A DNA stretch of 64,000 nucleotides from Leptospiraceae bacterium (lineage in GTDB: Bacteria > Spirochaetota > Leptospiria > Leptospirales > Leptospiraceae), in contig JACKPA010000012.1 of NCBI GenBank assembly GCA_024233865.1, positions 64,001-128,000 of the forward strand, read 5' to 3'. The notes under the pieces were generated by a model. That model was not told where the DNA came from. It did no database searches and worked only from the letters and a program-made list of their open reading frames with translations. Numbering within the stretch: position 1 is the first letter of the stretch; every line of letters begins with the position of its first letter. The position numbers and the translations under genes are program-made. This document shows positions 29,841-47,496 of this stretch, in pieces.

Positions 29841-29842
29841 AG

Positions 29843-30472: not shown

Positions 30473-30563
30473 ACGTTTTAATATCTACCACCGATACACA
30501 CAGATAAACACCGATAAAAATATCTGTGTACATCCGTGTTTATCTGTGGTGGAAAACCATATC

Positions 30564-30959
30564 TTAATCACAGTAATAATCTTCTTCACAATAGCCATAT
30601 TCGTCAATGTAGCAGACTTTCTCTTTGCTTGGGCAAGACGTTATGATGAGTGTGCTCCTTGTAATGGACGAAAACAATCCCACTACGAGTGTCACTACCA
30701 TGTCAACACCCGTTATCTTCTCTTGGAGTGCGTAAGGCTTATTTTTGTCCAAGCCGGAGAATACGGTTTCTGCGTCATTCTCTCCTAAGTCGGATGTGCC
30801 GTAGAATATCTTCCAGATCGTGACTTCTTTGGCAACTGCTCCACATACGTCAGACTTAGCTACCATTTTGATCCTGCCTTCTTTTGCCAAAGTAGCAGTG
30901 TCAACCGTCTGGCAATCAATCAACGCTAACAAACTAAATGTTAAAATCAAATATTTCAT
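30564..30959 (-). CDS. Small secreted Cys-containing protein
   Basis: Signal peptide; 131 aa. Confidence 0.35.
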   Translation of the reverse strand: MKYLILTFSLLALIDCQTVDTATLAKEGRIKMVAKSDVCGAVAKEVTIWKIFYGTSDLGENDAETVFSGLDKNKPYALQEKITGVDMVVTLVVGLFSSITRSTLIITSCPSKEKVCYIDEYGYCEEDYYCD

Positions 30960-30974
30960 ATAATCTCAATTGTA

Positions 30975-31028
30975 TGGTTCGACTACGCTCACCATGCGAG
31001 TCCGATCCCTGAGCGTAGTCGAAGGGAG
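30975..31028. repeat. R1 palindromic element, full copy, intergenic
   Basis: GGTTCGACTACGCTCACCATG-cgagtccgatc-CCTGAGCGTAGTCGAAGGGA: inverted arms with core TTCGACTACGCTCA. Confidence 0.6.
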
Positions 31029-31032
31029 CATT

Positions 31033-32699: not shown

Positions 32700-32772
32700 T
32701 TAATTGTCACACTTCTACACTCAGTGTGACAATTTAAGAAAAAATTATATCCTATCTAATTGGTTAAAAACG

Positions 32773-34059: not shown

Positions 34060-34237
34060 CCGAATGATAGACCAAAGAAAGGTTTGGCTGTACGTCTTTT
34101 GTTCCGGGTGGGACTTCTATTGGGTAAGAAGCATTTGCCTTTCCGTTGTCATCCACCACAACCTGTGGCATTGCTTGCGGAATTGTTCCTGTGGAATTCG
34201 TATCCAGATGTACCAATAACAAGCACAGTGCCATCAT
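33905..34237 (-). pseudogene. SpvB-type N-terminal fragment of a decayed Rhs/Tc-toxin gene, frame-shifted relative to the downstream Rhs core ORF
   Basis: ASYPIEVPPGTKDVQPNLSLVYHSDEPDGLLGSGWW matches the SpvB N-domain consensus (PievPpG..G..PsLsLsYsS...G..G.GW). Overlaps the 32773-34059 ORF in a different frame, implying a large internal deletion and frameshift. Confidence 0.45.
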
Positions 34238-34450
34238 AAGTATAGCATTAAGTGCCTTTTTAGTGTTATATATATATATGGTAATTGTGTTAATTTTGTG
34301 AAGAGTTTCATGTGAATCACCTCGTGTGTTATCGTCCTAAAGACAAAGTGATTGGAAACAAAAATTTTTTGCAAGTCTTTTATGAATTATTTTTCCAAGC
34401 GGAAAGAAAAAAATTACGTTTTTCCCCCGAATAGCTAAAATTCACTTTAA

Positions 34451-34486
34451 GCTTCATTTACCCCCGTTCACGGGGGTAAGTGAAGC
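34451..34486. repeat. R2 G/C-rich hairpin element (inverted orientation) embedded in a 16-bp-arm palindrome GCTTCATTTACCCCCG-TTCA-CGGGGGTAAGTGAAGC
   Basis: Core CCCCCGTTCACGGGGG is the reverse complement of the 29822 and 63741 cores. One mismatch in the 16-bp arms. Confidence 0.55.
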
Positions 34487-34682
34487 CAAAACCTGAATTT
34501 AAACCGAATGGGGGGGAATAAATTCGTTAATTATGTCTTTTTATTCAGTAATTTTTTCATTCTTTCCAATTCTTTTTTTAATGAAAGGAAAGAAAAGAGT
34601 TTTTTCAAAAACCTTATTGCCAAAAAATAGGAATATCCGTATACTAAAAAACAAGCATAAATCCCAAAAATCACGGTAAACT

Positions 34683-35516
34683 ATGTTAACTTATAAAGAA
34701 AAAAAGAACTTTAATATAGAAGAAATGGAGATTGAGGACAGTAAACCGGTGGACAACATTTTTTCTGAAAAGCAAATGAGACTACTTACCGAGCCTTTGT
34801 ATACCTCATGGAAACCCAAAGAGCACATAAATTTTTTGGTAACTGCCAATGTTGGAATATTCACCGAAATATTAGAAAACCCAATTGTTCCAGATGTTTT
34901 GCTAAGTCTGGAAGTAGATATACCGGAAAGCAGAAAAAAAAAGGAAGATTTATGTTACTATTTGGACAAAATCGGCAAAGCACCGGAGGTAGTGATAGAA
35001 ATCGTATCCAATAAGGAAGGAAACGAATTGGATAGTAAGCTAAAAGACTATGGGAAAATCGGAGTTTTGTACTATACCGTTTATGATCCCGATTTACACA
35101 TATTGAAAGGAAATCCGGTAAGTAGCTTTAAGTATAAAAAAGGAATGGCATTTAGAATAGAAAAATCTTGGTTTGAGGAAGTGGGTTTGGGACTCAGATT
35201 ATGGGATGGAATTTTTGAGAATCAACATGGAACATGGCTTAGGTGGTGTGACTACTTTGGAGAAGTGATTCCTACCGGAAAAGAGTTGGCAGAACTGGAA
35301 AGACGTAAAACGGCAATAGAGCAAAAACAGAGAATAGAAGCTCAAAAACAAAGAATGGAGGCTCAAAAACAAGCTGAAGTAGAGAAAAATTGCAGAATGG
35401 AAACTCAAAAGCAAGCTGAAATAGAGAAAAATTACAGAATGGAAGCACAAAGACAAGTTGAACATTTGGCTCAAAAGTTACGTGAACTTGGCTTTAATCC
35501 GGAACAAGATTTGTAA
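34683..35516 (+). CDS. Uma2-family (DUF820) putative endonuclease with C-terminal EAQKQ coiled-coil repeats
   Basis: PDVLLSLEVDIP...PEVVIEIVSNKEG..D...K...Y...GVLYYTVYDP is the PD-(D/E)xK Uma2 signature. 39-bp tandem repeats at ~35330-35450. Confidence 0.7.
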   Translation: MLTYKEKKNFNIEEMEIEDSKPVDNIFSEKQMRLLTEPLYTSWKPKEHINFLVTANVGIFTEILENPIVPDVLLSLEVDIPESRKKKEDLCYYLDKIGKAPEVVIEIVSNKEGNELDSKLKDYGKIGVLYYTVYDPDLHILKGNPVSSFKYKKGMAFRIEKSWFEEVGLGLRLWDGIFENQHGTWLRWCDYFGEVIPTGKELAELERRKTAIEQKQRIEAQKQRMEAQKQAEVEKNCRMETQKQAEIEKNYRMEAQRQVEHLAQKLRELGFNPEQDL

Positions 35517-35535
35517 AAATTGGATGGCAACAGAT

Positions 35536-35778
35536 TCAGAAAGAAGGCAAGTATTCTGATTTTTGGTTGCACTTTTTTTCATTTTGAAAGGCTTGCAAAC
35601 ATGTTGCCAGTGCTATAGGAAACAATTCATTGTAAGAACTTGGAGCTAAAATAACAATATCCAGATAACGAATACAAGTTTTTATGTTCTCTTTTTTGGT
35701 ATCATCTTCGCAAGCTGATTTCTGACTTGTACAACTTAATATAAAAATTAAGCTAAAAAGTAATGTCATTTTTTTCAT
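35536..35778 (-). CDS. Small lipoprotein
   Basis: FILSC lipobox; 80 aa. Confidence 0.3.
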   Translation of the reverse strand: MKKMTLLFSLIFILSCTSQKSACEDDTKKENIKTCIRYLDIVILAPSSYNELFPIALATCLQAFQNEKKCNQKSEYLPSF

Positions 35779-35814
35779 AATTACCCTCCGCGATCTCCGC
35801 GACTCCGCGTGAGA

Positions 35815-36444
35815 CTATTTCAACCAAGCTTCCCATTCTATCCGAACTTTATCTTTGATAGAAGTGAAAACAACCGACGGTCTCTCTACCTTAAAATCCG
35901 ATAGTAAAATATCAAAGGTTGCGTTTATTTTCAAACTACCATTTTCTTGCTTGGAGCTTGCCGTAAAACTAACGGGTTTGGTTGTTCCTTTGATCGTTAG
36001 ATCGCCTTGGAATGAATAGGTTCCTTTTTTGGTAAGTTCAAGGTTTTTGACAGAAAAGTTAATTTCTTTCTGGTCTGGATAGCCAAGAATTTCCCACATA
36101 TGAGAATCCCGATTTTCATCTCCGGTGTGCATATTCACAATAGTGCAACTAATTGAAAAAGGAACTTCCGCAGAAACACCATTCACATCCGGAATAACTT
36201 TCAGATTTTCTACCTTTGGTTTTATGCACTCCCCTTTTACCTTTTTGAATACGTGATCTGCAAAAAATTTGATCTTTAGCTCTTTGAAAACTACACCTGA
36301 TTTTTGTTCAATGGGTGCTTTCTTTTCTTGAGCATACAAAGAAAAAACAAAAAAACTAAACAAAAGAGCAATAAAATATTTCATAAAATCCCTCAAAAAT
36401 AAAAAGTAGCAATAGAAACAGATAAAGCCGCAAAGCCCAACCAA
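35815..36444 (-). CDS. YceI-family periplasmic polyisoprenoid-binding-like protein
   Basis: Likely start at MKYFIALLF (~36384). Motifs NRDSHM and GDLTIKGTTKPV. Confidence 0.6.
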   Translation of the reverse strand: MVGLCGFICFYCYFLFLRDFMKYFIALLFSFFVFSLYAQEKKAPIEQKSGVVFKELKIKFFADHVFKKVKGECIKPKVENLKVIPDVNGVSAEVPFSISCTIVNMHTGDENRDSHMWEILGYPDQKEINFSVKNLELTKKGTYSFQGDLTIKGTTKPVSFTASSKQENGSLKINATFDILLSDFKVERPSVVFTSIKDKVRIEWEAWLK

Positions 36445-36992
36445 CCTACATTACGCATATCAGTCAAGCCCTGGGCTGAAGCATTGTGAACCGCCTTTTC
36501 ACCAAGGTAAGGTAAGGCAAGCATACAAGGAAGGTGAATAAAGATCATTGCTTTATGAGTAAAGATAGTACTCCAGCCTTTTTGTGGTGTTACATCCACT
36601 TTTTTGGGAGCCATAAAAGATAGAAAAGCAGTAGCACCATAAAGAGTAAAGGTTAAAAAACCTAACTTACCGTGATTTCCCATTGGCTCTTCATAACCCC
36701 TTTTGGACATAGCATAAAGTAGCAATTTGTCATCAGAAGGTGCCATTAAGTATGACGTTAAAATATAATTGGGAAGTCTTCTGCTTAATTTGTATTTGCT
36801 GTATTCCTCTTTGTAAGAGGCTTCACCGGCAACATTGGTTGCAAGCCAGCTAACCCAGGTAGCCAATCCTAATGCCTGGTGCCATTCCAAATAAGAACGT
36901 CTTTTTTTAAGGTATTTGGATGAGATGGATTTTTCCTCAGCGTATAAGGAGAATGTAAATAAGCAAAGTAGAATTAAGAATCTATTTAACAT
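36393..36992 (-). CDS. Secreted/membrane hypothetical
   Basis: Signal peptide; His-containing hydrophobic segments. Confidence 0.35.
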   Translation of the reverse strand: MLNRFLILLCLFTFSLYAEEKSISSKYLKKRRSYLEWHQALGLATWVSWLATNVAGEASYKEEYSKYKLSRRLPNYILTSYLMAPSDDKLLLYAMSKRGYEEPMGNHGKLGFLTFTLYGATAFLSFMAPKKVDVTPQKGWSTIFTHKAMIFIHLPCMLALPYLGEKAVHNASAQGLTDMRNVGWLGFAALSVSIATFYF

Positions 36993-37053
36993 ATACCAAT
37001 CTTTTAACTGCCATTACAAGAATCTACAAAAATATATTTGACATGTTTGCGAT

Positions 37054-37269
37054 TTGAGGGCATTCTTGAACCGTATGAAAACCATAGGGAATAAAAGGAC
37101 TCGTACACCGGAAGAATGTCTGATTACCCAAAATAAGTTGATCTTTGAATTAGAGCAAATCAGACCCAATAAAAAGAAAAAAGGGATTATATTAAAATTT
37201 AAAACTTGGAAAGAATCGGAAGAGTTTGATTTAAAGAGAGCGGTTGATTACGTTGAACCCAAAGGATGA
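37054..37269 (+). CDS. Small hypothetical, overlaps the next gene
   Basis: 71 aa. 26-bp overlap with the next gene. Confidence 0.25.
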   Translation: MRAFLNRMKTIGNKRTRTPEECLITQNKLIFELEQIRPNKKKKGIILKFKTWKESEEFDLKRAVDYVEPKG

Positions 37270-37717
37270 TTTAACCATTGTTTGCAAGTTGTTTATAGAA
37301 AAGGATGTCAAATTTCTTATTTGTGGCGCCAGGGCATGTGCTCTCCATGGTTATATTCGAGCGACTGAAGACATTGATATACTAGTTCAAAATAATAAAA
37401 AGAATATAGAAAAAGTAATCGAATGTATAAATGAGTTATATCCCCACCTAGAAGAAGTTACCGTAGATGATTTGATTTCCAATATTGTCTTAAAAATTTT
37501 AGATGAACCTGAATTGGATATAATGCTTTCCGCTTGGTCGGTAACCTATGAAGAAGCTCAAAAAGATGTATGCAAAGTTGTTTTTAACAATCTGGAAATA
37601 CCTTTTCTTGGTTTGGAATCGTTGTTAAAAAGCAAGGAGACTGAGAGAGAACAAGACAAGTGGGATTCTAAGATACTAAGAGAGATTTTGAAAAAGAAGC
37701 ATAAAACAAAGGAATAA
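37244..37717 (+). CDS. Nucleotidyltransferase-fold-like small protein
   Basis: LICGARACALHGYIRATEDIDILV resembles the minimal nucleotidyltransferase GG/GS...D.D motif. Confidence 0.3.
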   Translation: MITLNPKDDLTIVCKLFIEKDVKFLICGARACALHGYIRATEDIDILVQNNKKNIEKVIECINELYPHLEEVTVDDLISNIVLKILDEPELDIMLSAWSVTYEEAQKDVCKVVFNNLEIPFLGLESLLKSKETEREQDKWDSKILREILKKKHKTKE

Positions 37718-37719
37718 AT

Positions 37720-39039
37720 ATGAAAAATATAGTAATATTACTTTTTATTGTAATTTTAAGCCTTGGTTGTGCCGGAAATCAAAAACCGGAAAAAAAAACC
37801 GAGATAAAATTATATGAACTGGATAGCTCCAATATTCGAACCGAAAGATTTAAAAATACTGGGAATTTGAAAGGCAAAGGACCGGTTCTTGTGAATACTC
37901 CTGCTAGCCAACTATCGGAGGATCAAATCAAGAACTTACCAAAACACGGAATTTGGGAAGAATACGCTGAAAAAGAGAACGTATCTACTAACGTGAAATA
38001 TAGTGTTTTGGAATCCAAGGGAGAATATAAAAACGGTAATCGAGAAGGTTTGTGGAAATATTTTTATGAAGACAAAAAGCTCTTTAAAGAAGTGAACTAT
38101 TCCAATGGTAAAAAAAACGGATTAGAAAAGAAATTTACCGGGAACGGTGATCTTATCAAGCAAGCAAGCTATATTGATGATCTGTTGCAAGGCGAATATT
38201 GGGAAAAATCGCAGAAAGGGATTTTGGAAAACGAAGGAGAATATACCGCCGGACAAAAAGCCGGAACCTGGAAAGAATACTACCCGGAAACGGGAAATCT
38301 TAAAAGTATAGCCAACTATTCCAATGATAAAAAAAATGGGAATTTTGTTCACTACTATGAGGATGGAAAAACCCAAATGGCTGTTGGAAAATACAGCAAT
38401 GATTTGGAAACCGGTCATTGGCAGTATTTTTATAAAAATGGAAACGTGCAAAGCGAAGGCGACTATAAACCAAGGAATTCCGATTTTCAAGACGAGCAAA
38501 AAGATACGCCGATGGCAAAAATTTCTCCCAAAGCGATCAAAGTGGGAACATGGAAACAGTACTACCAGTCCGGAGATTTATTTTCTACTGGTTTACGGGA
38601 AGGAAAACCCATGGGTGAATGGAAGTTTTATTACAAAGGAAACAAACTGGCTGCTAAAGGAATTATGACAAATGATATTATGATGAAGACAGGAGAAACG
38701 TTTACCAAAGACGGACTTATGGATAAAAAGGGCAATTTTATCCACTCCATTATCAAAATCGACCAAGAAAAAGATGAATTTTCCATGGATTATAAACCAT
38801 CAGCTCCTTTTATCTACTTTCGAGATGGGAAAAAGCATTTGGAAATCACAACTCGGAAAATTGGTGGGAAAAATGTTGCTTACGAATACGATGAAAATGA
38901 AAGCAAAATCGGAGAAGGTCCTTATGAGGCAATGATTGGAAAGAAAAACGGTTGCTGGACTTCCAAAGGTGAAAAGGTTTACTACGTTTTGGGAAAGGTG
39001 AGAAAAGGGGTCATGGCAAAAGCAGCCAATTGTGAGTGA
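37720..39039 (+). CDS. MORN-repeat (MORN_2/YwqK-like) lipoprotein
   Basis: Lipobox LSLGC. Many repeats of G.YKNG..EG.WKYFYE.G.L. Confidence 0.65.
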   Translation: MKNIVILLFIVILSLGCAGNQKPEKKTEIKLYELDSSNIRTERFKNTGNLKGKGPVLVNTPASQLSEDQIKNLPKHGIWEEYAEKENVSTNVKYSVLESKGEYKNGNREGLWKYFYEDKKLFKEVNYSNGKKNGLEKKFTGNGDLIKQASYIDDLLQGEYWEKSQKGILENEGEYTAGQKAGTWKEYYPETGNLKSIANYSNDKKNGNFVHYYEDGKTQMAVGKYSNDLETGHWQYFYKNGNVQSEGDYKPRNSDFQDEQKDTPMAKISPKAIKVGTWKQYYQSGDLFSTGLREGKPMGEWKFYYKGNKLAAKGIMTNDIMMKTGETFTKDGLMDKKGNFIHSIIKIDQEKDEFSMDYKPSAPFIYFRDGKKHLEITTRKIGGKNVAYEYDENESKIGEGPYEAMIGKKNGCWTSKGEKVYYVLGKVRKGVMAKAANCE

Positions 39040-39173
39040 AGTAAAATACCTGCATCGCCAAATTTCTTCACGGTGAAATTCATGCTTCGAGACAGAATTT
39101 TTATCTATTTCAAGATATTCTCACTCAGTTGTGATTTTGTCGCCGTATTTTCCATTTGCCACCCTTAAACCTT

Positions 39174-39737
39174 TTACAAAAGCATAGCTTTGATTCTTTC
39201 CAAAGTATTAGTTCTACCTTCGGATAAGGGTTCCAGTTCTTTCAACTTGTATAAATCAACATCCCTGGCAAGGTCAAAAATTTTATCATCTTCTACGTGG
39301 AGTAGAATGTCTAGAAGTTTGTTTGGCTTATTTTCCAATAGTAAATTGAATACTTTTGTAGAAAGCCTTTTGTTCAAGCGAAACAGGATCATGGCGGCTT
39401 TTTCTGCGTTTAGATAAACAATAGATTCATAGATGTATTGAGGCTCTAATCCGGCTACGATGTTCAAAAAAAGGGATGGTTCCAAACTTTCGGCTATCAT
39501 AGCACCAACGGGAGGGTCAATATAAGATCGAATTACATAATGGATAATAAAGTTCGGGATGTATTTTATTATAACGGTGTTGGCTTGGATAGACTTTCGG
39601 ACGGCTTCCATCTTGACGTTGTAAAAGCCTTCGATAAACAATCGAACTTCATGAATTGTTTCAGGTGGTAAGTCTGCGATGGAATGAGGTATATCTCCAC
39701 CAACTAATTCTTCCAAAAAAACTAAATCTTCTTCCAT
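39174..39737 (-). CDS. Hypothetical protein
   Basis: ORF only. Confidence 0.3.
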   Translation of the reverse strand: MEEDLVFLEELVGGDIPHSIADLPPETIHEVRLFIEGFYNVKMEAVRKSIQANTVIIKYIPNFIIHYVIRSYIDPPVGAMIAESLEPSLFLNIVAGLEPQYIYESIVYLNAEKAAMILFRLNKRLSTKVFNLLLENKPNKLLDILLHVEDDKIFDLARDVDLYKLKELEPLSEGRTNTLERIKAMLL

Positions 39738-39777
39738 GGTATTCAGCCATATTGCTTAAACCTTAGATAATTTTCAA

Positions 39778-40998
39778 TTAATTAAAAAAAAATTCCATTT
39801 CTTTTTTGAGCCAAAGGATACGAACGATAAGCATAGCCAAAAGCACAATGCCAAACCACAAAATTCCAAAATCATTGTAAGATTTTTTAGAATTTTTGTA
39901 CAAAATGATCATAGGGATGCTGAGAGTAAACATTCTCATTATGTTATCGTAAGTTAGCCAATAACCTTGTTCGGCAATCCCGGCAGTAAAAAGGATGAAT
40001 AAAATTGGAAGAAACCAAACAAAATCTTGAACCGTTTTAATATTTCTTAAATTCAAAAGCAGTAGCAGATAAAAAATAAAGATCGGATATTTTGCCAGTT
40101 CTCGAACAAAAGGTGATAGATTCATTGGAGTCGAAAACGAAATGCTTTTAAAAAAGCCAAAAAACGGATAATCGATCAAATCAAGAAATGTTAGTGGATA
40201 TGTTCCGGGATTGGCATCTAAAAAAAATCGAAGGTAGAAGACAAAGGCAAAATAAAAAATTATAGACCCCCCGACTAGTCCAAGCAAACTTTTAGTCTCA
40301 TTACTCCCCCCTGTTGGGGGGAGTATTTGGACTGAACTAGAACTAAAGCTATTTGGGGGGTAGCTTCTTTTCAGCCATAACAATAACAATAACATCCCCA
40401 TTATGCTGAGAGCTGATTCTTTGATCAAAACGAAAAAGCAGCCAAGCAGTAGCAAAACAGATATCTTTGCCGGTTTGTGGCAATCTTTTTGATTCAAAAA
40501 GTAGAATATAAAAATCGTCCAAGAGCATACCAAAGAATCGGATAGTAGTAATAGGTTTGAGTTGATTACAAAAGGCGAAAACAGATGGAAATTCGCCAAA
40601 TAGCGGATTTCTTTTTTGCAGAGTTTTTTGAGCATAACAAAGGACATAATGTGAGATAGGTGTAGTATTGCTAAAGTGATAACCGGATAGGCTTTTGTGC
40701 CAAATATTTTTGAAAAAATTGAGGTTAGCAAGGGAAGCCCGATTCGAGTAAATCGAACACTAAATGAGTCCAAAATCGGAAGTTGCGAAGAAACACCACT
40801 CAAATACTGATTGATCAAATAAAAAAATTGCCCATCATATCCACCACTTTTATATACCACAAAACCTTTATCAACAAAATCGGGATTCAGGTTCAAAAAT
40901 CCTTCCCAGATCCCAATCATCGAAGAAAGGTTGTAATCATAAGGTTTTATGCGATAATAAATTAAAATTACGTTTAAAATAATGTATAAAAATATCAT
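39778..40998 (-). CDS. Polytopic integral membrane protein (GT-C-like/unknown) carrying an in-frame G/C-rich hairpin insertion
   Basis: ≥9 predicted TM helices. Hairpin CTCCCCCCTGTTGGGGGGAG at 40304-40323 encodes ..LPPTGGS.. in-frame. Confidence 0.5.
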   Translation of the reverse strand: MIFLYIILNVILIYYRIKPYDYNLSSMIGIWEGFLNLNPDFVDKGFVVYKSGGYDGQFFYLINQYLSGVSSQLPILDSFSVRFTRIGLPLLTSIFSKIFGTKAYPVITLAILHLSHIMSFVMLKKLCKKEIRYLANFHLFSPFVINSNLLLLSDSLVCSWTIFIFYFLNQKDCHKPAKISVLLLLGCFFVLIKESALSIMGMLLLLLWLKRSYPPNSFSSSSVQILPPTGGSNETKSLLGLVGGSIIFYFAFVFYLRFFLDANPGTYPLTFLDLIDYPFFGFFKSISFSTPMNLSPFVRELAKYPIFIFYLLLLLNLRNIKTVQDFVWFLPILFILFTAGIAEQGYWLTYDNIMRMFTLSIPMIILYKNSKKSYNDFGILWFGIVLLAMLIVRILWLKKEMEFFFN

Positions 40999-41003: not shown

Positions 41004-42152
41004 CTATGGGACATTTCGACTACGCTCAATGTCCGAATTATGCTTTCTCTTATCGTAGTCGTGCGTTCCCTGAGCGTAGTCGAAGGGAACAGCCATCACT
41101 AATTTCGCCAAAGTTTCTATAAACATCGGATAAATTCCCGATGCAGGAACTCGATAATATTCGATGATTCCATTTTTGTGGGCGATTTCTTTCAATTCTT
41201 CGCCAATTTCAAACAATGTTTCCAGATGATCACTCACAAAACTAATGGGAATAATAGCTACTCGTTTAACACCTTCGTTTCCCAGTTGTTTTAGCATGTC
41301 AATTGTATTAGGTTCTGTCCATTTTCCTTTACCTACCCTACTCTGAAATGATAAATAATCTCTCCCCATAAAGCCAGCTTTTCGCAAATTTGTCGTAATT
41401 TTAGCCCTACAATCCTCTAATTCTTGAACGTAAGTATCTCCTTTTTTGATCAACCTCATTGGTATTCCATGGGCAGAGTAAACCAAAGTGAGATTTTGCC
41501 AATCTTCAATCGGTTCTTTTCGATTCAATTGAATAAAGTTTTTTACCAATTTCCCATAAAAATAATCCAATATCAATTGAGTTGCTGCCTGTAAATAAGA
41601 TGGTTCTTTATAAAATGGTCCGATCCAACCTGGCTCTTTTCTTGGATCAGTCCCGATAATTTGTTCTATTATATTTACAACACTTAAAACGGTTGATCGA
41701 GAAAAATGAGGAAACAAAGGTAGTAAAATATTATCTTGGGAAGGAATTAACCTGGATTTTTCCATATCTCGCAAATTAGGATAACCGGCTGTCATTGCAA
41801 TATCAACAGACCAATCTTCACCTGTTTTGCTTTTTAGCAAAGTTTCGAGAGTTTTAGCTTGTTTTTCCGTTTCGGGAACAAGAGGAGAACCACCGCCAAA
41901 GCCCATTTTTAAATAACTTTTGGCAACTTCCGGAGTTCGTCTTTTGGTTATAAACTTTGCCAGCTTTAAACGAAAAAATTCCGGTAGAGGAACATCAAAA
42001 ACAAAAGGATCACTCAAAACATCCCAAAGAAACTTTTCTATTTCCGCAGGATTTCTTGGACCACCAAAGTTAATTAATAATACTCTTTTTTTCAAACTAT
42101 TATTCCGTTTTTTTTGGTTCCAGATAAAACTTTTTGATATATGCGACTTCAA
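41004..42152 (-). CDS. hemH: Ferrochelatase
   Basis: VLLINFGGP..FL.DVLSDP, GGGSPL, and C-terminal SDHLETLFEIGEEL. Confidence 0.8.
   Translation of the reverse strand: MKSHISKSFIWNQKKRNNSLKKRVLLINFGGPRNPAEIEKFLWDVLSDPFVFDVPLPEFFRLKLAKFITKRRTPEVAKSYLKMGFGGGSPLVPETEKQAKTLETLLKSKTGEDWSVDIAMTAGYPNLRDMEKSRLIPSQDNILLPLFPHFSRSTVLSVVNIIEQIIGTDPRKEPGWIGPFYKEPSYLQAATQLILDYFYGKLVKNFIQLNRKEPIEDWQNLTLVYSAHGIPMRLIKKGDTYVQELEDCRAKITTNLRKAGFMGRDYLSFQSRVGKGKWTEPNTIDMLKQLGNEGVKRVAIIPISFVSDHLETLFEIGEELKEIAHKNGIIEYYRVPASGIYPMFIETLAKLVMAVPFDYAQGTHDYDKRKHNSDIERSRNVP
41010..41092. repeat. R1 palindromic element, extended copy downstream of hemH
   Basis: TTTCGACTACGCTCAATG ... ATCGTAGTCG ... CCCTGAGCGTAGTCGAAGGGAAC. 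Confidence 0.6.
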
Positions 42153-43137
42153 TTCCGGCTTCTTTTGTATCTATATAATCTCTAAATGCACCTTGGTAAT
42201 TGGACAACATATCATTTAGAGTTAGCCCACCTTTGGTTGTGAACCCACCTCTTGTAAATTGTCTGTGAGCATAATAACCTATTCGAAATAAACTGTCATA
42301 TTGGGGTAGTTTATAAAAGAATTCAAAATTAACAAGAAAACCTAAACCGGAATTGCTGGATAAAAAATTTAAAGCTCTTTGGTAATGAAAATCTCTAGCT
42401 TTATTATAAGCATACAATATGTGCACAGAAGGTTCAATAGAGATATTTTTAAAAGAGAACAAATACCCTAAACCTAAAGGGAATTCAACCATTGTATGGG
42501 AATAAGATAAACCTAATCCGATAGGTCCATAATAAACCGGTTTGGAATCAATAAACTGAATCACGTCATACAGGTAATATTTAAAAAATTTATATCGAAC
42601 TCCTAAAGACGCAAAAAAACCGCTATTTATACTAAATGGGTCTGGCGTCGCTTTTCCAAAATAATACCTCATAAAGGCATCGCCTCCATATTCTTTCATG
42701 GAGGATCTTGTGTGACCGTCAGCAAAATTAACAGTTCCCGTATAAGTATGGGCTGTGTCGTACAAGGTAAAACGCTCTGGGGCAAATTTAGTCCCTTTTT
42801 CAGTTGAAATGCTTCCCATTACAAAATCTTCGTCTCTTGAATCTCCAGGGTTAATGTACCAACCTGTTGTTGTATATTTCATGGTGACCAAGAATTTGTT
42901 ATGATAAAATCCTAACTGAAATCCACCATAGTTAAAGTTTCTGGCATAGGTTATTCTAGAGCCTCCTTTGATTCCTGATAGATTCGGGTACTTATTTCCG
43001 GATTCAAAAATGTGATCTCCCTGGTTTCTTGCTCCAATTATAGAGACATATCCATCAGCAAATAATGGATGAAAAATGGAGATTAATAGAACTGAAAAAA
43101 TTTGTAATTTTGTCTTGAATTTAAAGCTGTAAAACAT
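42100..43137 (-). CDS. Outer-membrane beta-barrel-like hypothetical
   Basis: ORF runs to 43308 but the signal peptide starts at the internal Met (MFYSFKFKTKLQIFSVLLISIF), so the start is ~43137. C-terminal aromatic-rich beta pattern. Confidence 0.4.
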   Translation of the reverse strand: MFYSFKFKTKLQIFSVLLISIFHPLFADGYVSIIGARNQGDHIFESGNKYPNLSGIKGGSRITYARNFNYGGFQLGFYHNKFLVTMKYTTTGWYINPGDSRDEDFVMGSISTEKGTKFAPERFTLYDTAHTYTGTVNFADGHTRSSMKEYGGDAFMRYYFGKATPDPFSINSGFFASLGVRYKFFKYYLYDVIQFIDSKPVYYGPIGLGLSYSHTMVEFPLGLGYLFSFKNISIEPSVHILYAYNKARDFHYQRALNFLSSNSGLGFLVNFEFFYKLPQYDSLFRIGYYAHRQFTRGGFTTKGGLTLNDMLSNYQGAFRDYIDTKEAGIEVAYIKKFYLEPKKTE

Positions 43138-43217
43138 TATATAACAAAGGATAGAAAATGGTATCTTATGTCGATTTAATATTTCAAAAAACATCAAAAC
43201 TGTTTGTATTAATAATA

Positions 43218-43238
43218 GGGGTGAAATGATTTCACCCC
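43218..43238. promoter_or_regulatory. Perfect palindrome GGGGTGAAAT-G-ATTTCACCCC 17 bp upstream of second parA start; candidate ParA/ParB operator or centromere
   Basis: 10-bp arms. Contains GTGAAA/TTTCAC half-sites reminiscent of canonical parS (TGTTTCAC-GTGAAACA) but in inverted arrangement. Confidence 0.45.
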
Positions 43239-43254
43239 TACCAAAAGGATTTAC

Positions 43255-44031
43255 ATGAAAGAAGAAAAAAGCTCTAAAGAAGCAAATATAATTGCTGTAT
43301 CCAACCAAAAGGGAGGTGAAGGAAAAACTACTATTTCGCTTTTTTTATCAGAAGCGCTTTCGGAACATTTTAAAGTTTTACTTATTGATTGGGACGCACA
43401 AGCCAATGCAACAAGATTGTTTGTGAATAATCCGGAAAAGTCTATTTTTCACTGTTTAAAATATAGAAATAATTCACCAATTTCAATGAATGTGATAACT
43501 AAGCATATCACTGAGAATTTTCATTTGATTCCATCTTCTATTTCATTGGCTAACCTAACAACTCCTTTCGATATAGAAGATTTTGAATTATTAAAGGATG
43601 CTATCGAACCATTAAAACCTCTATATGATTATATTATTATAGATTGTCCTCCTTCTCTGGGATTGGTTTTGGAAAATGCTCTAATCGCAGCCGATTATGT
43701 AATTATACCAGTTCAAACCAGAGCTTTTAGTGTTCAGGGTTTACAAGATTTGTACAACTCTATTGAAAAAATTAAAAAAAGAGCAAATCCAAATCTTAAA
43801 TTATTGGGTGCAATCTTGAATCAATATGAAGAGAGTAGGGCATTGTCGGGTTTATCAAAAAATATTCGTAAATACTTTCCTGTATTCAAAACGATTATAT
43901 ATAGAAAAGAAAATATTCCGCAAGCTCAAGCCAAAAGAAAATTGTTGAAAGGATGTGATCCAAAAACAAGGAAGAATTTTTATGAACTTGCAAATGAAAT
44001 TCAGGAGCATATAAATGTCGAAAAAAAATGA
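43255..44031 (+). CDS. parA: ParA/Soj partition ATPase (second copy)
   Basis: Deviant Walker A NQKGGEGKTTIS. Overlaps parB by 17 bp. Confidence 0.85.
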   Translation: MKEEKSSKEANIIAVSNQKGGEGKTTISLFLSEALSEHFKVLLIDWDAQANATRLFVNNPEKSIFHCLKYRNNSPISMNVITKHITENFHLIPSSISLANLTTPFDIEDFELLKDAIEPLKPLYDYIIIDCPPSLGLVLENALIAADYVIIPVQTRAFSVQGLQDLYNSIEKIKKRANPNLKLLGAILNQYEESRALSGLSKNIRKYFPVFKTIIYRKENIPQAQAKRKLLKGCDPKTRKNFYELANEIQEHINVEKK

Positions 44032-44713
44032 ATTTGGAGCATTGGATTTAATTTCCGTATATGATGAAAAAAAGGAAAATCCTGATAAAATTCCAATTTC
44101 TGAAATTATATCAAATCCCAACCAACCAAGGGTATTTGGTAAAGATAATGTAGATGATTTGCTTGATTCTATAGAAAGGCTCGGTTTGATAGAGCCGATT
44201 GTTGTAAGAAAGGACTTAGATGGGTATGTCCTTGTTGCGGGAGAAAGAAGACTAAATGCTGCCACAAAATTAGGCTGGAGTGAAATTCCAGCCATTGTAA
44301 CGGATGCCAATCCTGATGTTTGTTATGAGATGGCATTGGCAGAAAATGAAAAAAGAAAGAGCCTTAATCCTTGGGAAGTGGGAAGAGCTATTGATTATTT
44401 AAGGAAGGAAAAAAATAAAACCGCTGATGAGGTTGGTAAGATACTCGGCTACACACCTAGATATATTAAACAGTTAAACGCTATTGCTAGAATTGAGCAA
44501 GATGTTGTGAATGAATTTATACAAAAAGGAAATGAGCCATCTATAAAAAATTTAGAAAGACTGCTTAAAATGCAAAGCGGAGAAGAACAACCAAAATATA
44601 AATATGTTCCAAAAAACAATAGGATAGTTATTGATTTAAAAAGAATTCCTGAGCAAGCCAGAGTTGATTTTATGGAAGAGCTTCAGAATTTAAAAATTAA
44701 GTATGGGATATGA
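44015..44713 (+). CDS. parB: ParB-like partition protein (second copy, short)
   Basis: ParB box LVAGERRLNAATKLGW; 232 aa. Confidence 0.8.
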   Translation: MSKKNEFGALDLISVYDEKKENPDKIPISEIISNPNQPRVFGKDNVDDLLDSIERLGLIEPIVVRKDLDGYVLVAGERRLNAATKLGWSEIPAIVTDANPDVCYEMALAENEKRKSLNPWEVGRAIDYLRKEKNKTADEVGKILGYTPRYIKQLNAIARIEQDVVNEFIQKGNEPSIKNLERLLKMQSGEEQPKYKYVPKNNRIVIDLKRIPEQARVDFMEELQNLKIKYGI

Positions 44714-44843
44714 AATAATCAAAAAAATTTTTTATTGAAAAAAAAATCTTTTTGATTATAGTATACACTAAAATTAGTGTAAATTTTGTATACTTTAAGA
44801 ATATGCTGATTTAAAATTTAAACGAAATATAAAAGGACTAAGT

Positions 44844-45764
44844 ATGAACCGTAATTTAAGGTTTAGTAATCTAGAAGACGTAGAAAAAGAACTAAAGAAA
44901 TTAGAAAACTCAAAAGTAGAGGCTAGTAGCTTTCTGAATTATTATCAAATTTTAAACCATTGTGCAGATCATATATACTTCTCTATGATGGGTTTTCCTG
45001 GAAGAAACTGGCCCTTTTTTATACGAAAAACTTATGGCAAGTATAAATTATCTCAAATCATGGAAGAAGGTTATATCCAACCGGATTCTCCTTTGCCTTA
45101 TGCTCCTAAAGAGAACGAAGATGGGAACGAAGATATTGCCATGGATAAACTAAAAAAAGCTATTGTAGATTTTAGAGATTATGAAGGTTCTTTGTCTGCT
45201 CATCCCTTTTATGATTTGTTAACCAAAGAATTATGGGAAAAATTTCATTCTATGTATATTGCAAATTTGTTAGGGTTTGTAAATGTAGTTGAGAAAGTTG
45301 AAGCAAAAGTTCCTAATACTAAAATGGTCGAGCCATCCAAACCAGTTATAGAAGAATCAAAACCTAAAAAAGCTGTTGTTAAAGAGCCAGAAAAAGTTCC
45401 TCAAAACAAAACTAAAATAGAGCAAATAACAACAACATCCTCACCTTCAAAAAAGAAACCGGTAAGTAAAAAAACTATTCCTGCTCCCGTTTCTAAAAAA
45501 TCTCTTATAAATACTTCTAAGAAAAAAGCTATAAAAGAAGTGGATAAACCTGCTGCAAAAAAGAAGCCTCAACAAAAATTGAAGCCGGATATTATTGCTA
45601 AAAAGAAACCGGTAAGTAAAAAAACTATTCCTGCTCCTGTTTCTACAAAATCTCCTATAAATACTTCTAAGAAAAAAGCTATAAAAGAAGTGGATAAACC
45701 TGCTGCAAAGAAAAAGCCTGCTTCTAAGCAGAAAATTAAGGAAACTGTAAAAAAGAAACGTTAA
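44844..45764 (+). CDS. Hypothetical protein with Lys-rich histone-H1-like C-terminal tail containing a ~130-bp tandem duplication
   Basis: Globular N-terminal domain. C-terminal KKKPVSKKTIPAPVSKKS.INTSKKKAIKEVDKPAAKKKP is repeated twice (DNA 45450-45579 and 45600-45719). Confidence 0.45.
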   Translation: MNRNLRFSNLEDVEKELKKLENSKVEASSFLNYYQILNHCADHIYFSMMGFPGRNWPFFIRKTYGKYKLSQIMEEGYIQPDSPLPYAPKENEDGNEDIAMDKLKKAIVDFRDYEGSLSAHPFYDLLTKELWEKFHSMYIANLLGFVNVVEKVEAKVPNTKMVEPSKPVIEESKPKKAVVKEPEKVPQNKTKIEQITTTSSPSKKKPVSKKTIPAPVSKKSLINTSKKKAIKEVDKPAAKKKPQQKLKPDIIAKKKPVSKKTIPAPVSTKSPINTSKKKAIKEVDKPAAKKKPASKQKIKETVKKKR

Positions 45765-46918
45765 CTTTGATTGTTTTGAATGGGAATTTTAAGCTTATAA
45801 AAAGGATAAAAAGCTGATTTCCAGAGTAGCAATGGAATAAATATGTTTATTAATAGTGTAAGTATCCATGCCCATAAGGGACCATACATTGTATAGGGAT
45901 CAAATTGGTGCATAAGGTGCATAATGATGGGATGCAAAAGGAATATTACCAAACTATTTTTTCCTATATAGATACAAGTGTGGTATATATAATTTAGAGA
46001 TGAATTGGTTGAGTTTTCAAGGTAATGACCCAAATAGATTAGGGTGATAAATGCAACAAAAGGATAAAATACGAATCGGCTTGAGTTTTCAAAAAAATTA
46101 AAAAACGTAAAATAAGCAATAAAGCTGTTATATATAATTATAGCTAAGACTAATAAATATAAATTTCTATTGCTGTGAAATAGTTCCATAAACTCATTTT
46201 TAAATAGAAGTTTTCTTTTCATAACCAAGCCTATTACAAAGAAAAAGAAGTAGTTTGTGCATGACAGAACTTGCCATCTATTAATTTCTTCGGAATGTTC
46301 TAAGGCAAAATATTGGTTTGAGAATATATTAATCAATAGAGAAAACAGAATCAAGATAGTTAAATTTTTGTTTTTTAGTTTTTCAATAACTTTATGAAAA
46401 ATAAAATAAAGAAAGTAGAACTGAAAAATCATGGGAATGAAGTAATAAGGCTCATATACTTTACCGAGTAATATTTGAATTATAAAATTCCATACTCCTA
46501 CCTTTTGAATATCATTGTATTTGATAAAAAATCCTAAAATTGCTATCAAAAAATAAGGTAAAAATAATTTATTGATTCTTGGCTTCCAGTAAGAAGATCT
46601 GGTTTTATAGTTTAAGAAGACAGCCGAGGAAAAAATAAAAATCGGAACGCAAAACCTATAATAATTAGAAAAGAGTCTTGTAATTTTTAGTTCAACGTTG
46701 TTTGGATGAAAATAGGTAAAATAGGAATCTATGTGAATGATAATAGTTCCTAAAGTGGCTACTCCGCGAATAAAATCAATTACTTCATTTCTTTTATAAT
46801 TTTCAACACTGGTGATGTTTTCATTATTTTGAAATAATGTTCTATAAGAGGGTGCAAACTTTAGCAAAAAAATACCTAGCAAAACACCTAAAATTTCAAT
46901 AAAAATATATGGATTCAT
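45761..46918 (-). CDS. Acyltransferase-3 family membrane protein
   Basis: ~10 TM helices. N-terminal DFIRGVATLGTIIIHI motif. Confidence 0.65.
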   Translation of the reverse strand: MNPYIFIEILGVLLGIFLLKFAPSYRTLFQNNENITSVENYKRNEVIDFIRGVATLGTIIIHIDSYFTYFHPNNVELKITRLFSNYYRFCVPIFIFSSAVFLNYKTRSSYWKPRINKLFLPYFLIAILGFFIKYNDIQKVGVWNFIIQILLGKVYEPYYFIPMIFQFYFLYFIFHKVIEKLKNKNLTILILFSLLINIFSNQYFALEHSEEINRWQVLSCTNYFFFFVIGLVMKRKLLFKNEFMELFHSNRNLYLLVLAIIIYNSFIAYFTFFNFFENSSRFVFYPFVAFITLIYLGHYLENSTNSSLNYIYHTCIYIGKNSLVIFLLHPIIMHLMHQFDPYTMYGPLWAWILTLLINIFIPLLLWKSAFYPFYKLKIPIQNNQS

Positions 46919-47037
46919 AATGAGAGTTCAATCATGTTAATCACGAAAATCATTCTAGTCATACTATAAAACGAGGTAAATTAATCATGTAAATCCTGAA
47001 AATCAGTTTGATCCTAATATAAAAATGTTGCTATTTT

Positions 47038-47496
47038 GTGAATCAAAATAAAATCTTACCCTATAATTCTATAGAAAGAAAACTAAATATGTCGATGTCT
47101 GCGTCTATAATAACTCAAAAAACAGGAAGATTGATTTTCAAGGAAGGTGACAAAGGAGACTCCATGTATATTATACTGGAAGGGACCGTTGATATTTATG
47201 TAATGGCAGATGGGCAAGAGATGCAGCTGGCAACTTTACATCCGGGAGATTTTTTTGGTGAAATGTCTTTGTTTCGTGATAAACCAAGAAGCGCAAGTGC
47301 CAGAGTTATCAAAGATGTTCGTTTGGCAGTAATACAAAGCAGACAACAATTAGAAAGATTCTTGGTGGATAATCCGTTGTTTGCTGCAAAAATGGTGACA
47401 ATTATGGCTGGTAGGCTTTCTAAAACTAATGAATTGTTGATCCAAAAGGTAAACGAACTGGCAGCCATTAAACTTGAATACCAAACTTCTCATTAA
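47038..47496 (+). CDS. Cyclic-nucleotide-binding domain protein
   Basis: GDFFGEMSLF...RSASARV is the cNMP-binding signature. Start probably at internal MSMSAS (~47089). Confidence 0.65.
   Translation: MNQNKILPYNSIERKLNMSMSASIITQKTGRLIFKEGDKGDSMYIILEGTVDIYVMADGQEMQLATLHPGDFFGEMSLFRDKPRSASARVIKDVRLAVIQSRQQLERFLVDNPLFAAKMVTIMAGRLSKTNELLIQKVNELAAIKLEYQTSH

Follow-up and report, generated by a model that had tools for sequence, protein, structure and literature searches.

A second ParAB cassette with its own conserved palindrome on chromosome CII of Leptospira and related Leptospiraceae

Identical cis sites bracket the operon in the par2 system of pB171, and the upstream one doubles as an operator. 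Ebersbach and Gerdes reportedly described par2, of type Ib, in 2001, with parAB placed between two centromere regions (parC1 upstream, parC2 downstream), and Lin and Grossman are said to have found in 1998 that a B. subtilis parS lies inside the 3' part of spo0J. The cassette analyzed here, parA2-parB2 (locus 2), resembles the pB171 arrangement in that most of its lineages have an operon bracketed by identical cis sites, of which the upstream one would also serve as operator. Whereas the ParB of pB171 is small, not of the HTH-ParB type and matched to iterated direct repeats, locus 2 combines an HTH-ParB with single palindromes. The window, by which we mean the whole 64-kb stretch of DNA analyzed, itself has the upstream site only.

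[quoted passage not shown] 2008, PMC2229662). This module, represented in the window by locus 1, shares its replicon and protein families with locus 2. In contrast, locus 2, which is not discussed in that paper, has no adjacent rep, lies 23-28 kb from the skew origin, encodes a ParB that is 34% identical, and carries an unrelated and far more conserved palindrome.

[quoted passage not shown] Like the locus pair described here, SCP1 (2026, PMC13245405) has two complete same-type parAB operons on one replicon of ~350 kb, with divergent ParBs, distinct palindromic sites and less canonical CTP-pocket motifs. The same study counted 1111 PLSDB accessions with two same-type ParABS systems in combination; Leptospira records are not listed in the text of its supplement. 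In contrast to SCP1, the Leptospira replicon is an essential secondary chromosome, the pair and its synteny are, by sequence, conserved over the sampled Leptospiraceae, and one copy of the site is embedded in the parB coding sequence.

Two further systems invite comparison. The chromosomal Soj/Spo0J-parS of Bacillus and Thermus (6sdk, 1vz0, 6iub) gave the best sequence and fold matches for both ParA2 and ParB2 and has CTP-binding motifs in common with locus 2. Locus 2 differs in having a site other than the canonical TGTTTCACGTGAAACA, a shorter ParB and no more than one or two sites. ParAB2/parS2 of V. cholerae chromosome II (PMC3141006, PMC3688505) is, like locus 2, a secondary-chromosome ParABS with a non-canonical parS and regulatory side-functions. 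However, it has a single par operon with a ParA of type Ia, and its parS2 sites are multiple and dispersed, whereas Leptospira CII has two operons, with the locus-2 sites at the operon only. In the literature searched, on par systems of Leptospira as well as by locus tag and by the sequence of the site, the parA2/parB2 pair is mentioned at annotation level only. One gene annotated as parB on CII, L. biflexa LEPBI_II0026, is transcribed (PMC4863578), and its gene number suggests that it is the ParB2 orthologue.

Two ParAB loci on one replicon

The window contains two complete ParA/ParB pairs, ~28 kb apart with locus 1 upstream (Table 1), as the first-pass annotation had proposed. Neither pair is a pseudogene, a concern raised at that stage; all reading frames are intact and encode the family-invariant residues. 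Locus 1 (parA1-parB1-rep) is a separate plasmid-like, origin-proximal origin/partition module. It coincides with the GC-skew minimum of the window (14-16 kb), and its rep-like gene has an orthologue at 295198-296145 of L. interrogans CII.

Table 1. Features of the two loci and their surroundings in the window
Feature	Position	Strand	Description
parA1	14393-15148	+	Locus 1; family matches
parB1	15132-15980	+	Locus 1; 282 aa; family matches
Locus-1 palindromes, perfect	16114-16143, 16159-16192		Common core TGATTAAATTTAATCA; candidate parS1 or origin sites
Rep-like HTH_36 protein gene	16551-17609	+	Downstream of parB1; Pfam HTH_36 E=4.5e-9
Porin_6 outer-membrane protein gene	42100-43137	-	Pfam Porin_6 E=4e-82; gene call from same organism
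Candidate ParB2 site (parS2/operator)	43216-43240		TAGGGGTGAAAT-G-ATTTCACCCCTA; perfect 12-nt arms 43216-43227 and 43229-43240
21-bp core of candidate ParB2 site	43218-43238		GGGGTGAAAT-G-ATTTCACCCC
parA2	43255-44031	+	258 aa; deviant Walker A KGGEGKT, residues 19-25; Pfam AAA_31 E=5.8e-50
parB2	44015-44713	+	232 aa; Pfam ParB_N E=6.4e-21; TIGR00180 106.7 bits
parB2 linker-coding stretch	44579-44617	+	Residues 189-201, GEEQPKYKYVPKN; place of the intragenic copy, lost in the window
Promoter-like match for DUF1569 gene	44735-44762		TTGAAA-16-TATAGT
Imperfect palindrome	44761-44793		TACACTAA-AA-TTAGTGTA between two GTATAC; arms 44764-44771 (TACACTAA) and 44774-44781 (TTAGTGTA)

The two loci differ as much as had been suggested. 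ParA1 and ParA2 are 37% identical. ParB1 and ParB2 are 34% identical over 159 aa and differ in length (282 and 232 aa), and with a ParB2 profile the representative of ParB1 reached 119.6 bits, a score that unrelated ParBs also attain; ParB1 is no nearer to ParB2 than generic ParBs are. The ParB2 family formed a single isolated cluster, and the locus-1 palindromes are unrelated to that of locus 2. Two complete type-I HTH-ParB parAB operons with distinct candidate parS sites are thus present on one molecule, both in the window and in the finished L. interrogans CII.

On the latter, locus 1 lies at 293.2-294.8 kb, at the cumulative GC-skew minimum, and locus 2 at 317.0-318.7 kb, 23 kb away. Order and orientation are the same as in the window, and two syntenic blocks also follow the order seen there. 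In many Leptospira species, ParB2 orthologues (232-236 aa, 53-60% identity) share a contig of 270-490 kb with ParB1 orthologues. Synteny of the block hemH-porin | parA2-parB2 | DUF1569 | acyltransferase extends over Leptospira of the pathogenic, intermediate and saprophytic groups and over Leptospiraceae MAGs. The neighborhood porin | parA parB | DUF1569 / FMN reductase | acyltransferase is conserved, with the porin gene as the invariant left neighbor of the cassette.

These comparisons effectively refute the idea that the arrangement in this metagenome-assembled contig arose by faulty assembly or by the recent insertion of a plasmid or prophage. The window does come from a MAG, and the gene content of the 25 kb between the loci is unlike that of L. 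interrogans. However, the finished L. interrogans CII has the two loci in the same order and orientation, as do single contigs of CII size from many isolates, and independent assemblies of the same organism reproduced locus 2. The conserved loci and neighborhood on L. interrogans CII rule out both mis-assembly and recent insertion. No tRNA genes were found in the 64-kb window, and searches of phage, viral-contig and Leptospira-plasmid protein collections gave no phage-like relatives of ParB2, the closest ParBs being 31-36% identical. GC content is unremarkable. By sequence comparison, locus 2 is an old inherited feature of CII across the sampled Leptospiraceae and not a recent plasmid or phage insertion.

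The first-pass annotation had offered three explanations: an integrated plasmid or prophage, a co-integrate, and a chromosome with two systems. Only the last survived, although it leaves room for a very old co-integration, in which two plasmid-like replicons fused as the ancestor of CII and the second cassette persisted without its rep. We regard this origin as rather unlikely. The distance between ParB2 and ParB1 (34% identity, no nearer to each other than to unrelated ParBs) is consistent with it, as are the layout of locus 1, which shares its parA-parB-rep order with Leptospira plasmids and phage LE1, the lack of a rep at locus 2, and the frequency of dual type-I systems on large plasmids (PMC13245405). 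Against it, ParB2 has no relative above ~36% identity on Leptospira plasmids, phages or viral contigs, and its family is one isolated cluster. The event would also predate the common ancestor of the sampled Leptospiraceae, and no mark of foreign DNA is seen today, GC content included. Co-integration concerns the origin of the cassette and is compatible with either functional reading, partition or local regulation.

The locus-2 palindrome and its intragenic copy

A perfect palindrome lies in the common control region of parA2 and the divergently transcribed porin gene. Its end is 16 nt from the parA2 ATG, and the distance between the site and the porin start is 81 nt; the first-pass annotation had identified the 21-bp palindrome correctly but gave the spacing to parA2 as 17 nt. 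It had also recognized that the GTGAAA and TTTCAC hexamers stand in swapped order relative to canonical parS. These hexamers are 9 bp apart, centre to centre. Canonical parS (TGTTTCACGTGAAACA) had no match at up to 2 mismatches in the window, which suggests that ParB2 does not use it here.

Across the family, the palindrome follows the consensus GGGGTGAAA-[T/C][G/C][A/G]-TTTCACCCC and is identical or near-identical at every orthologous locus. We scanned 185,579 species genomes and obtained 48 stretches with a match, 32 from Leptospiraceae and 16 from other organisms. Adjoining parA2/parB2 genes were present in all but one of the Leptospiraceae stretches (31 of 32), while par genes were carried by none of the others (0 of 16). 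Exact sites numbered at most two per genome and were 1.4-1.6 kb apart. The 350-kb L. interrogans CII has two sites at up to 3 arm mismatches, against 0.04 expected, and both flank parAB2. Within the window the palindrome is unique, with no second copy when 3 mismatches were allowed and none in 100 shuffles. The motif GGGGTGAAA-N3-TTTCACCCC is tied to the parA2/parB2 cassette alone. Dispersed sites of the Noc/KorB type were considered and rejected, with two sites on L. interrogans CII, both at the operon, and one in the 64-kb window.

The position of the upstream site relative to parA varies. In L. interrogans, L. fainei and the lineage L009, only 16-37 nt separate it from the start codon of the porin gene, and parA is farther away. 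A gene insertion in L009 and L017 puts it ~0.85-1.0 kb from parA, and the site is kept. It is likewise kept whether ParA has an N-terminal domain (as in L061) or lacks one (the window and L027), which points to ParB2 as the binder.

In all other lineages, a second copy of the palindrome lies inside parB2 (at +568/+571 in the orthologues), and every complete orthologous locus has one site upstream of parA and one inside parB. The intragenic copy encodes G-G-E-M/I-I-S-P in the relatives. Third-codon-position entropy is 0.13-0.14 bits within the site and 1.25-1.42 bits elsewhere in the gene, which makes the site the lowest-entropy 7-codon window of parB2 (rank 1 of 236 windows). Low entropy also held in a 13-locus subset that was not selected via the intragenic site. 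This codon usage indicates that the intragenic copy is under DNA-level selection, with its synonymous positions frozen. The lineage of the window has lost this copy and kept the upstream site alone; no substitute was found near the locus (spacers of 1-5 nt, up to 5 arm mismatches). That this lineage has done without one of the sites, and without the N-terminal domain of ParA, indicates that those parts are dispensable.

We consider it very improbable that the palindrome serves something other than ParB2, whether as a hairpin at the RNA level (in a 5'-UTR or attenuator), as an operator for some different regulator (e.g. of porin or heme genes), or as a site for the ParA2 N-terminal domain. In favor of such a role, a hairpin of 11 bp can form in the RNA (-16 kcal/mol, z = -2.7), and the site adjoins the RBS here and the porin start in other species. 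However, the arm sequence, not merely its pairing, is conserved across proteins that are 52-60% identical, single-arm changes in L. interrogans are uncompensated, and no family reached threshold in an Rfam scan. A second copy within the parB coding sequence also speaks against such a role, as does the lack of copies near other CII genes. The small folded domain of most ParA2 orthologues could bind DNA, yet the site is kept where ParA lacks it (the window and L027). The palindrome was not followed by a terminator-like T-run. A ylbH-leader match inside parB2 (25 bits, cut-off 50) was dismissed as chance.

An imperfect palindrome after parB2 had also been proposed as part of the locus. It is present but not conserved in L061, the closest relative (79% ParB identity), and it sits at or just past the -10-like hexamer of the promoter-like match for the DUF1569 gene. 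On these two grounds it was rejected as a second centromere and is probably not part of the partition system.

Features of ParA2 and ParB2

The parA2 and parB2 reading frames overlap by 17 nt. ParA2 belongs to the deviant Walker-A class of ParA/Soj, with KGGxGK[ST], the signature lysine and a Soj/MinD fold. Its KGGEGKT motif is invariant across 38 orthologues, and among solved structures it comes closest to Soj of H. pylori (6iub; 115 bits, residues 8-208). By these sequence features ParA2 is a Soj-like ATPase. A type Ia ParA, similar to P1 ParA or F SopA, was rejected because ParA2 lacks the ~100-aa N-terminal winged-HTH extension.

Most ParA2 orthologues have 300-314 aa, while that of the window is naturally shortened at its N-terminus to 258 aa and starts 10 residues ahead of the first ATPase-core strand. 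The nearest relative, L061, has a ParA2 of 314 aa with the same palindrome-to-ATG spacing as the window. The window and L027 both lack the N-terminal domain. In the orthologues this domain spans 47-56 aa and is predicted to be small and, in most, confidently folded. The extension had no Pfam match even at E=10. Its sequence pattern and predicted fold give the impression of a resemblance to excisionase-type HTH domains.

ParB2 begins with a conserved N-terminal peptide (MSKKxxFxxLDLI) and an N domain of the CTP-binding type; an HTH domain follows, and a disordered linker connects it to a short helix near the C-terminus. An alignment of 38 sequences showed QPR, GERR and ENEKRK to be invariant, and ParB2 aligns to the Spo0J-CDP structure 6sdk, including the CTP-pocket motifs. 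The third Arg of GERRxRA is Asn in the window and varies over the family (R/Q/H/K/N), such that the CTP chemistry of ParB2 could differ. TIGR00180 covers residues 21-189, while the Pfam HTH_ParB model had no match in ParB2. The AF2 model reached a pLDDT of 81.5, with helices 119-188 at ~90, and its top Foldseek matches were ParB-CDP, KorB, Noc and Spo0J (ParB, Noc and KorB at probability 1.0). Assignment to noc itself falls short, as TIGR04285 scored 104 bits against a cut-off of 315. After the linker, the C-terminus comprises ~30 residues with a confident helix (213-230) and a conserved LKKKYG tail, and it had no Pfam or family match. ParB2 thus has the N domain with CTP-pocket motifs and the central HTH of ParB/Spo0J CTPase-type proteins. 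Alignment and model agree that it keeps the CTP-binding motifs and fold of ParB.

A proposed second partition system

Our favored explanation, which we hold to be reasonably probable, is that locus 2 constitutes a second ParABS system, complete in itself, whose centromere is distinct and autoregulatory. As part of the same explanation, and on balance likely, the ancestor that the sampled Leptospira share with related Leptospiraceae would already have had the cassette, which would since have kept its place 23-28 kb beside the CII origin. We infer partition activity of the following kind. ParB2 dimers would recognize GGGGTGAAA-N3-TTTCACCCC, bind CTP through the retained QPR/GERR/ENxxR pocket and, in a CTP-dependent manner, close into clamps that accumulate over the operon region of ~1.5 kb. 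The conserved lysine-containing N-terminal peptide of ParB2 would stimulate the Soj-like ATPase ParA2, which in turn would move or position the origin-proximal part of CII on the nucleoid. Since the upstream site lies in the porin/parA2 control region, in the window 16 nt before the ATG, ParB2 binding there probably also autoregulates the operon. Several observations weigh against this explanation: the variable third Arg of GERRxRA, the very short putative dimerization region at the C-terminus of ParB2, the nearness of the upstream copy to the porin gene in L. interrogans, L. fainei and L009, and the dispensable parts lost in the lineage of the window.

A purely autoregulatory operator would account just as well for one or two sites that do not extend beyond the operon. 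We weighed the corresponding alternative, in which ParB2 is chiefly a local regulator, either as a KorB-like sliding-clamp repressor of the porin and parAB2 promoters or as a redundant backup resembling SCP1 parABS2 in the laboratory, and judged it unlikely. In its favor, there are only one or two sites, both at the operon, and in several species the upstream one, within the control region common to both promoters, stands 16-37 nt away from the porin start. KorB is also among the top structural matches of ParB2. A backup role is suggested by SCP1, whose maintenance needs only one of its two systems (PMC13245405), and by locus 1, which is already an origin-linked partition operon. On the other side, a full ParA partner whose ATPase is intact has everywhere been conserved alongside ParB2, and the invariant lysine-containing N-terminal peptide of ParB2 is kept. 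The intragenic site is under apparent DNA-level selection though distant from the promoters, L009 and L017 retain the upstream site ~0.85-1.0 kb from parA after gene insertion, and no further operator-like copies occur on CII. We therefore retain partition as the preferred reading.

A bolder version of the partition reading, which we consider improbable, is that ParB2 loads as a CTP clamp on a permuted centromere, with the swapped GTGAAA and TTTCAC hexamers one helical turn apart. If so, and if the HTHs read the hexamers canonically, the two monomers would be placed back to back along the DNA, and clamp closure or function would be unlike that of every ParB studied so far. ParB2 could then, for example, keep the CII origin region in a constant relation to chromosome I or the division cycle.

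Leptospira, whose CII is essential, counts a major zoonotic pathogen among its members. The lineage of the window offers a natural deletion series, with one site in place of two and, in the window, a ParA without its N-terminal domain. The palindrome cassette may also provide a new stabilizing cassette for Leptospira vectors. All the sampled clades of Leptospira and relatives within the Leptospiraceae have on CII two ParAB modules that are old and independent in their specificity. The second of these now has an exact candidate cis site: a 21-bp palindrome, usually in two copies, one of them fixed inside parB. Locus 2 would thereby add a long-conserved chromid example to the recently recognized replicons with two ParABS systems of the same type.

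Two partition pairs in the window

The window contains a second ParAB pair with its own palindrome, as the first-pass annotation had described; ORFs, family matches and palindrome coordinates bear this out (table below). The parA2 and parB2 ORFs overlap on the plus strand, and ParA2 matched H. pylori Soj (6iub) with 115 bits. The palindrome lies upstream of parA2 as proposed, with 16 nt rather than 17 between its end and the ATG. Its half-sites were also borne out: they are the GTGAAA and TTTCAC hexamers of canonical parS in swapped order. On a less likely reading, ParB2 would recognise them as canonical ParB does, but with its dimer arranged differently on the DNA. With up to 3 mismatches allowed, no second copy was present in the 64-kb window (0 in 100 shuffles).

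Features of the two partition loci and the syntenic blocks that hold them
Feature	Window coordinates	Strand	Details
parA1	14393-15148		locus 1
parB1	15132-15980		locus 1
Two perfect locus-1 palindromes	16114-16143 and 16159-16192		3' of parB1; common core TGATTAAATTTAATCA
HTH_36 Rep-like gene	16551-17609		after the locus-1 palindromes
Locus-2 palindrome	43218-43238		GGGGTGAAAT-G-ATTTCACCCC; perfect arms reach 12 nt (43216-43240)
parA2	43255-44031	+	258 aa; deviant Walker A KGGEGKT; Pfam AAA_31 E=5.8e-50
parB2	44015-44713	+	232 aa; ParB_N E=6.4e-21; TIGR00180 106.7 bits
Block A	11850-21160		L. interrogans CII 290.6-299.6 kb
Block B	41004-47496		L. interrogans CII 314.7-321.6 kb

ParB2 aligned with Spo0J-CDP (6sdk), T. 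thermophilus Spo0J (1vz0), M. xanthus ParB (7bnk) and Noc (7nfu). Across a 38-sequence alignment, QPR, G-E-R-R and E-N-x-K-R-K, the three ParB CTP-pocket motifs, were invariant, while the third Arg of GERRxR varied (Asn in the window). An N-terminal peptide, M-S/A-K-K/R-x-x-F-x-x-L/M-D-L-I/L, was also kept, with Lys3 invariant. In the AlphaFold model (pLDDT 81.5), residues 4-21 (N-peptide) and 191-201 (linker) are disordered and residues 213-230 form a short C-terminal helix; the top fold matches of the model were ParB-CDP, KorB, Noc and Spo0J. When 1.84 billion cluster representatives were searched with a profile, the ParB2 family formed one 50%-identity cluster (378 bits). The next full-length matches reached at most 138 bits, with the ParB1 representative amid generic ParBs at 119.6 bits. 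ParB2 therefore stands alone as a clade of the Leptospiraceae and did not arise by recent copying of ParB1. On Leptospira plasmids the nearest ParBs had 31% identity, and on phages and viral contigs at most 36%.

An imperfect palindrome 3' of parB2 (44761-44793), also reported in the first-pass annotation, is probably not part of the system: it adjoins the promoter-like TTGAAA-16-TATAGT of the DUF1569 gene and is not conserved in L061, the window's nearest relative. This DUF1569 gene (44844-45764) carries a 150-bp tandem repeat (45448-45719; 1.8 copies, 95% identity) coding a Lys/Pro-rich tail. Its protein has 306 aa here versus 256 aa in other assemblies of the same organism, exactly one repeat unit fewer, suggesting copy-number variation or assembly collapse. 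Within parB2, a short palindrome (44273-44293; GGCTGGA-GTGAAAT-TCCAGCC) places a GTGAAA hexamer in codons of the conserved LGWxEIPA segment; it scored as terminator-like on the minus strand and is probably incidental.

ParA1 and ParA2 share 37% identity, and ParB1 and ParB2 34%. The GC-skew minimum of the window coincides with the par genes, palindromes and Rep-like gene of locus 1. All five matches to TGATTAAATTTAATCA with at most 2 mismatches (10978, 11014, 16121, 16168 and 17603; span 10978-17618) fall within 7 kb around this minimum, as expected for candidate parS1 or origin sites. The motif was not found adjoining L. interrogans locus 1, where different inverted repeats occur; locus-1 sites have therefore diverged, whereas the locus-2 palindrome is almost invariant. 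Another palindrome, CTCCTGGGTGAAAACCCAGGAG (16501-16522), lies directly upstream of the Rep-like gene. L. interrogans carries a comparable GC-rich hairpin, CCCCTGGCCTGAACCAGGGG, at the equivalent place, and ATGTTGTTGGATGAGACATAA comes after it there as in the window.

Conservation on chromosome II

A Leptospiraceae MAG encodes a protein with 100% identity to the window ParB2. Pathogenic, intermediate and saprophytic Leptospira have full-length orthologues (53-60% identity, 232-236 aa), and the contigs that carry them, at ~270-490 kb, match chromosome II (CII) in size. ParB1 orthologues share these contigs, for example in L. perolatii (361,494 bp), L. langatensis (290,626 bp), L. ryugenii (277,983 bp) and L. 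fletcheri (345,251 bp). Gene order around locus 2 was kept in L. interrogans, L. levettii, L. fainei, other MAGs and independent assemblies of the window organism: (hemH)-porin(-), parA parB(+), DUF1569 and/or FMN reductase, acyltransferase(-) and a cNMP-binding gene.

The finished L. interrogans CII, filed as a plasmid in PLSDB, was analysed over 350,000 of its 350,181 bp. Locus 1 occupies 293.2-294.8 kb and an HTH/Rep gene follows at 295.3 kb; the cumulative GC-skew minimum falls exactly at locus 1, with the maximum opposite at ~119 kb. Locus 2 follows at 317.0-318.7 kb, after a heme cluster, hemH and the porin. Window ORFs matched this replicon in two syntenic blocks, A and B, of unchanged order and orientation. 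These blocks exclude both a mis-assembly joining two replicons and the recent insertion of a plasmid or prophage. The second pair is real, and its earlier interpretation, which had also offered a co-integrate or a chromosome using two systems, was partly right. Judged from these comparisons, the sampled Leptospira and related Leptospiraceae inherited the two-pair layout from their common ancestor.

The inter-locus interval has been remodelled (window 21170-40998 versus L. interrogans CII 299.6-314.6 kb). In L. interrogans it contains the heme-biosynthesis cluster; most window ORFs there have no match on that CII, and only hemH keeps its place beside the porin.

The CII origin was described as a partition operon with a downstream rep gene (Picardeau et al. 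2008; PMC2229662). This is locus 1; a second par pair is absent from the discussion in that paper. In L. biflexa, the CII gene LEPBI_II0026 carries the annotation parB and is mentioned solely for its differential expression (PMC4863578); its gene number makes it a probable ParB2 orthologue. In one Leptospiraceae MAG, ParB2-, ParB1- and ParA2-type proteins (P0046, P0127 and P0408) all have a longest contig of 1,410,425 bp, and a 3.29-Mb contig is given for one ParA2 cluster of L. levettii; replicon fusion or faulty scaffolding could account for such lengths. PLSDB files two L. interrogans chromosome II sequences, NZ_CP020413.2 and NZ_CP043881.1, as 'plasmid unnamed1', and plasmid-wide surveys of partition systems therefore take in this chromid.

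The locus-2 palindrome across relatives

Loci selected by protein (L. interrogans, L. levettii, L. fainei and one MAG) each carried the palindrome twice, once in the porin/parA intergenic region and once within parB, ~570 nt from its start. Scanning 185,579 species genomes with GGGTGAAATNATTTCACCC gave 48 matching stretches, 32 of them from Leptospiraceae. The same stretch held parA2/parB2 in 31 of these 32, the lone exception lying 476 bp from a contig end, while the 16 stretches from other phyla held no par genes. No genome in the scan had more than 2 exact sites, and paired sites were 1.4-1.6 kb apart. Both sites occurred in every complete orthologous locus, except that the window and L061 lack the intragenic copy. 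The consensus was GGGGTGAAA-[T/C][G/C][A/G]-TTTCACCCC, with variation mostly in the three central bases. No printed mention of the 15-nt core was found in the literature searched.

In the linker that joins the HTH and C-terminal regions, the intragenic copy codes for G-G-E-M/I-I-S-P. Entropy at third codon positions was 0.13 bits within this copy, less than in any other 7-codon window of parB, versus 1.42 elsewhere. For 13 loci not picked via the intragenic site, the values were 0.14 and 1.25 (rank 1 of 236). This pattern is selection on DNA rather than peptide. The palindrome could also act as an RNA hairpin (-16 kcal/mol), yet this fits poorly with arms conserved at the sequence level and one copy in a coding region.

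L061, with 79% ParB identity, shares the loss of the intragenic copy. The window linker reads GEEQPKYKYVPKN at this position, and no substitute site was found nearby. In L061, ParA has 314 aa and its ATG lies 16 nt after the palindrome; spacing in the window is identical, with ParA2 beginning directly at the ATPase core after clean loss of ~56 N-terminal residues. Most ParA2 orthologues have 300-314 aa, including a conserved 47-56 aa N-terminal domain (e.g. L061:2826-3770) that is missing at window 43255; a few MAG lineages have short forms of 252-267 aa. The domain follows LSxxEAxxxxGLSxxEFxxKxxxLKIPGxKxGKYKxxVLxKYF and matched no Pfam family. Its predicted strand-helix-helix-strand-helix fold (pLDDT ~90) suggests a possible small HTH. 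The palindrome persists whether or not ParA2 carries this domain, which makes ParB2 the likelier binder.

A putative ParABS cassette and its relation to known systems

Locus 2 is best supported as a self-contained ParABS cassette. The comparisons establish the identity of its genes, their orthology and synteny, the exclusivity of the palindrome and the constraint on it at the DNA level. By analogy with established ParABS biology, ParB2 would bind and load at the palindrome(s) in a CTP-dependent manner, ParA2 would act as its motor in segregation, and the promoter-proximal palindrome would also serve as an operator for autoregulation. The main rival is a mainly regulatory or redundant role, favored by a total of just one or two sites, each located at the operon, and by an upstream copy that lies 16-37 nt from the divergent porin start codon in L. 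interrogans (L001:8884-8941), L. fainei (L008:2900-2940) and one MAG (L009:8217-8254). A global role like that of Noc or KorB is unlikely because there are no further sites: with at most 3 arm mismatches, L. interrogans CII has only those at 316,871 and 318,522, both at the operon (shuffles 0.04). In L009 and another orthologous stretch (L017), a DUF1564 gene is inserted between palindrome and parA. Gene order suggests that the divergent porin is LIC20019, a locus tag that occurs in the literature searched only in leptospirosis vaccine-candidate papers.

Two type-I HTH-ParB systems on one replicon are common (1111 PLSDB accessions; McPhillips et al. 2026, PMC13245405). On SCP1, each of the two ParBs binds its own distinct parS sites, and maintenance requires just one of the systems (PMC13245405). 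Leptospira CII likewise carries two par systems of the same type. New relative to such cases are a pair and synteny conserved across all sampled Leptospiraceae on an essential chromid, a candidate cis site for the second pair, and one copy of that site embedded in parB under synonymous-site constraint.
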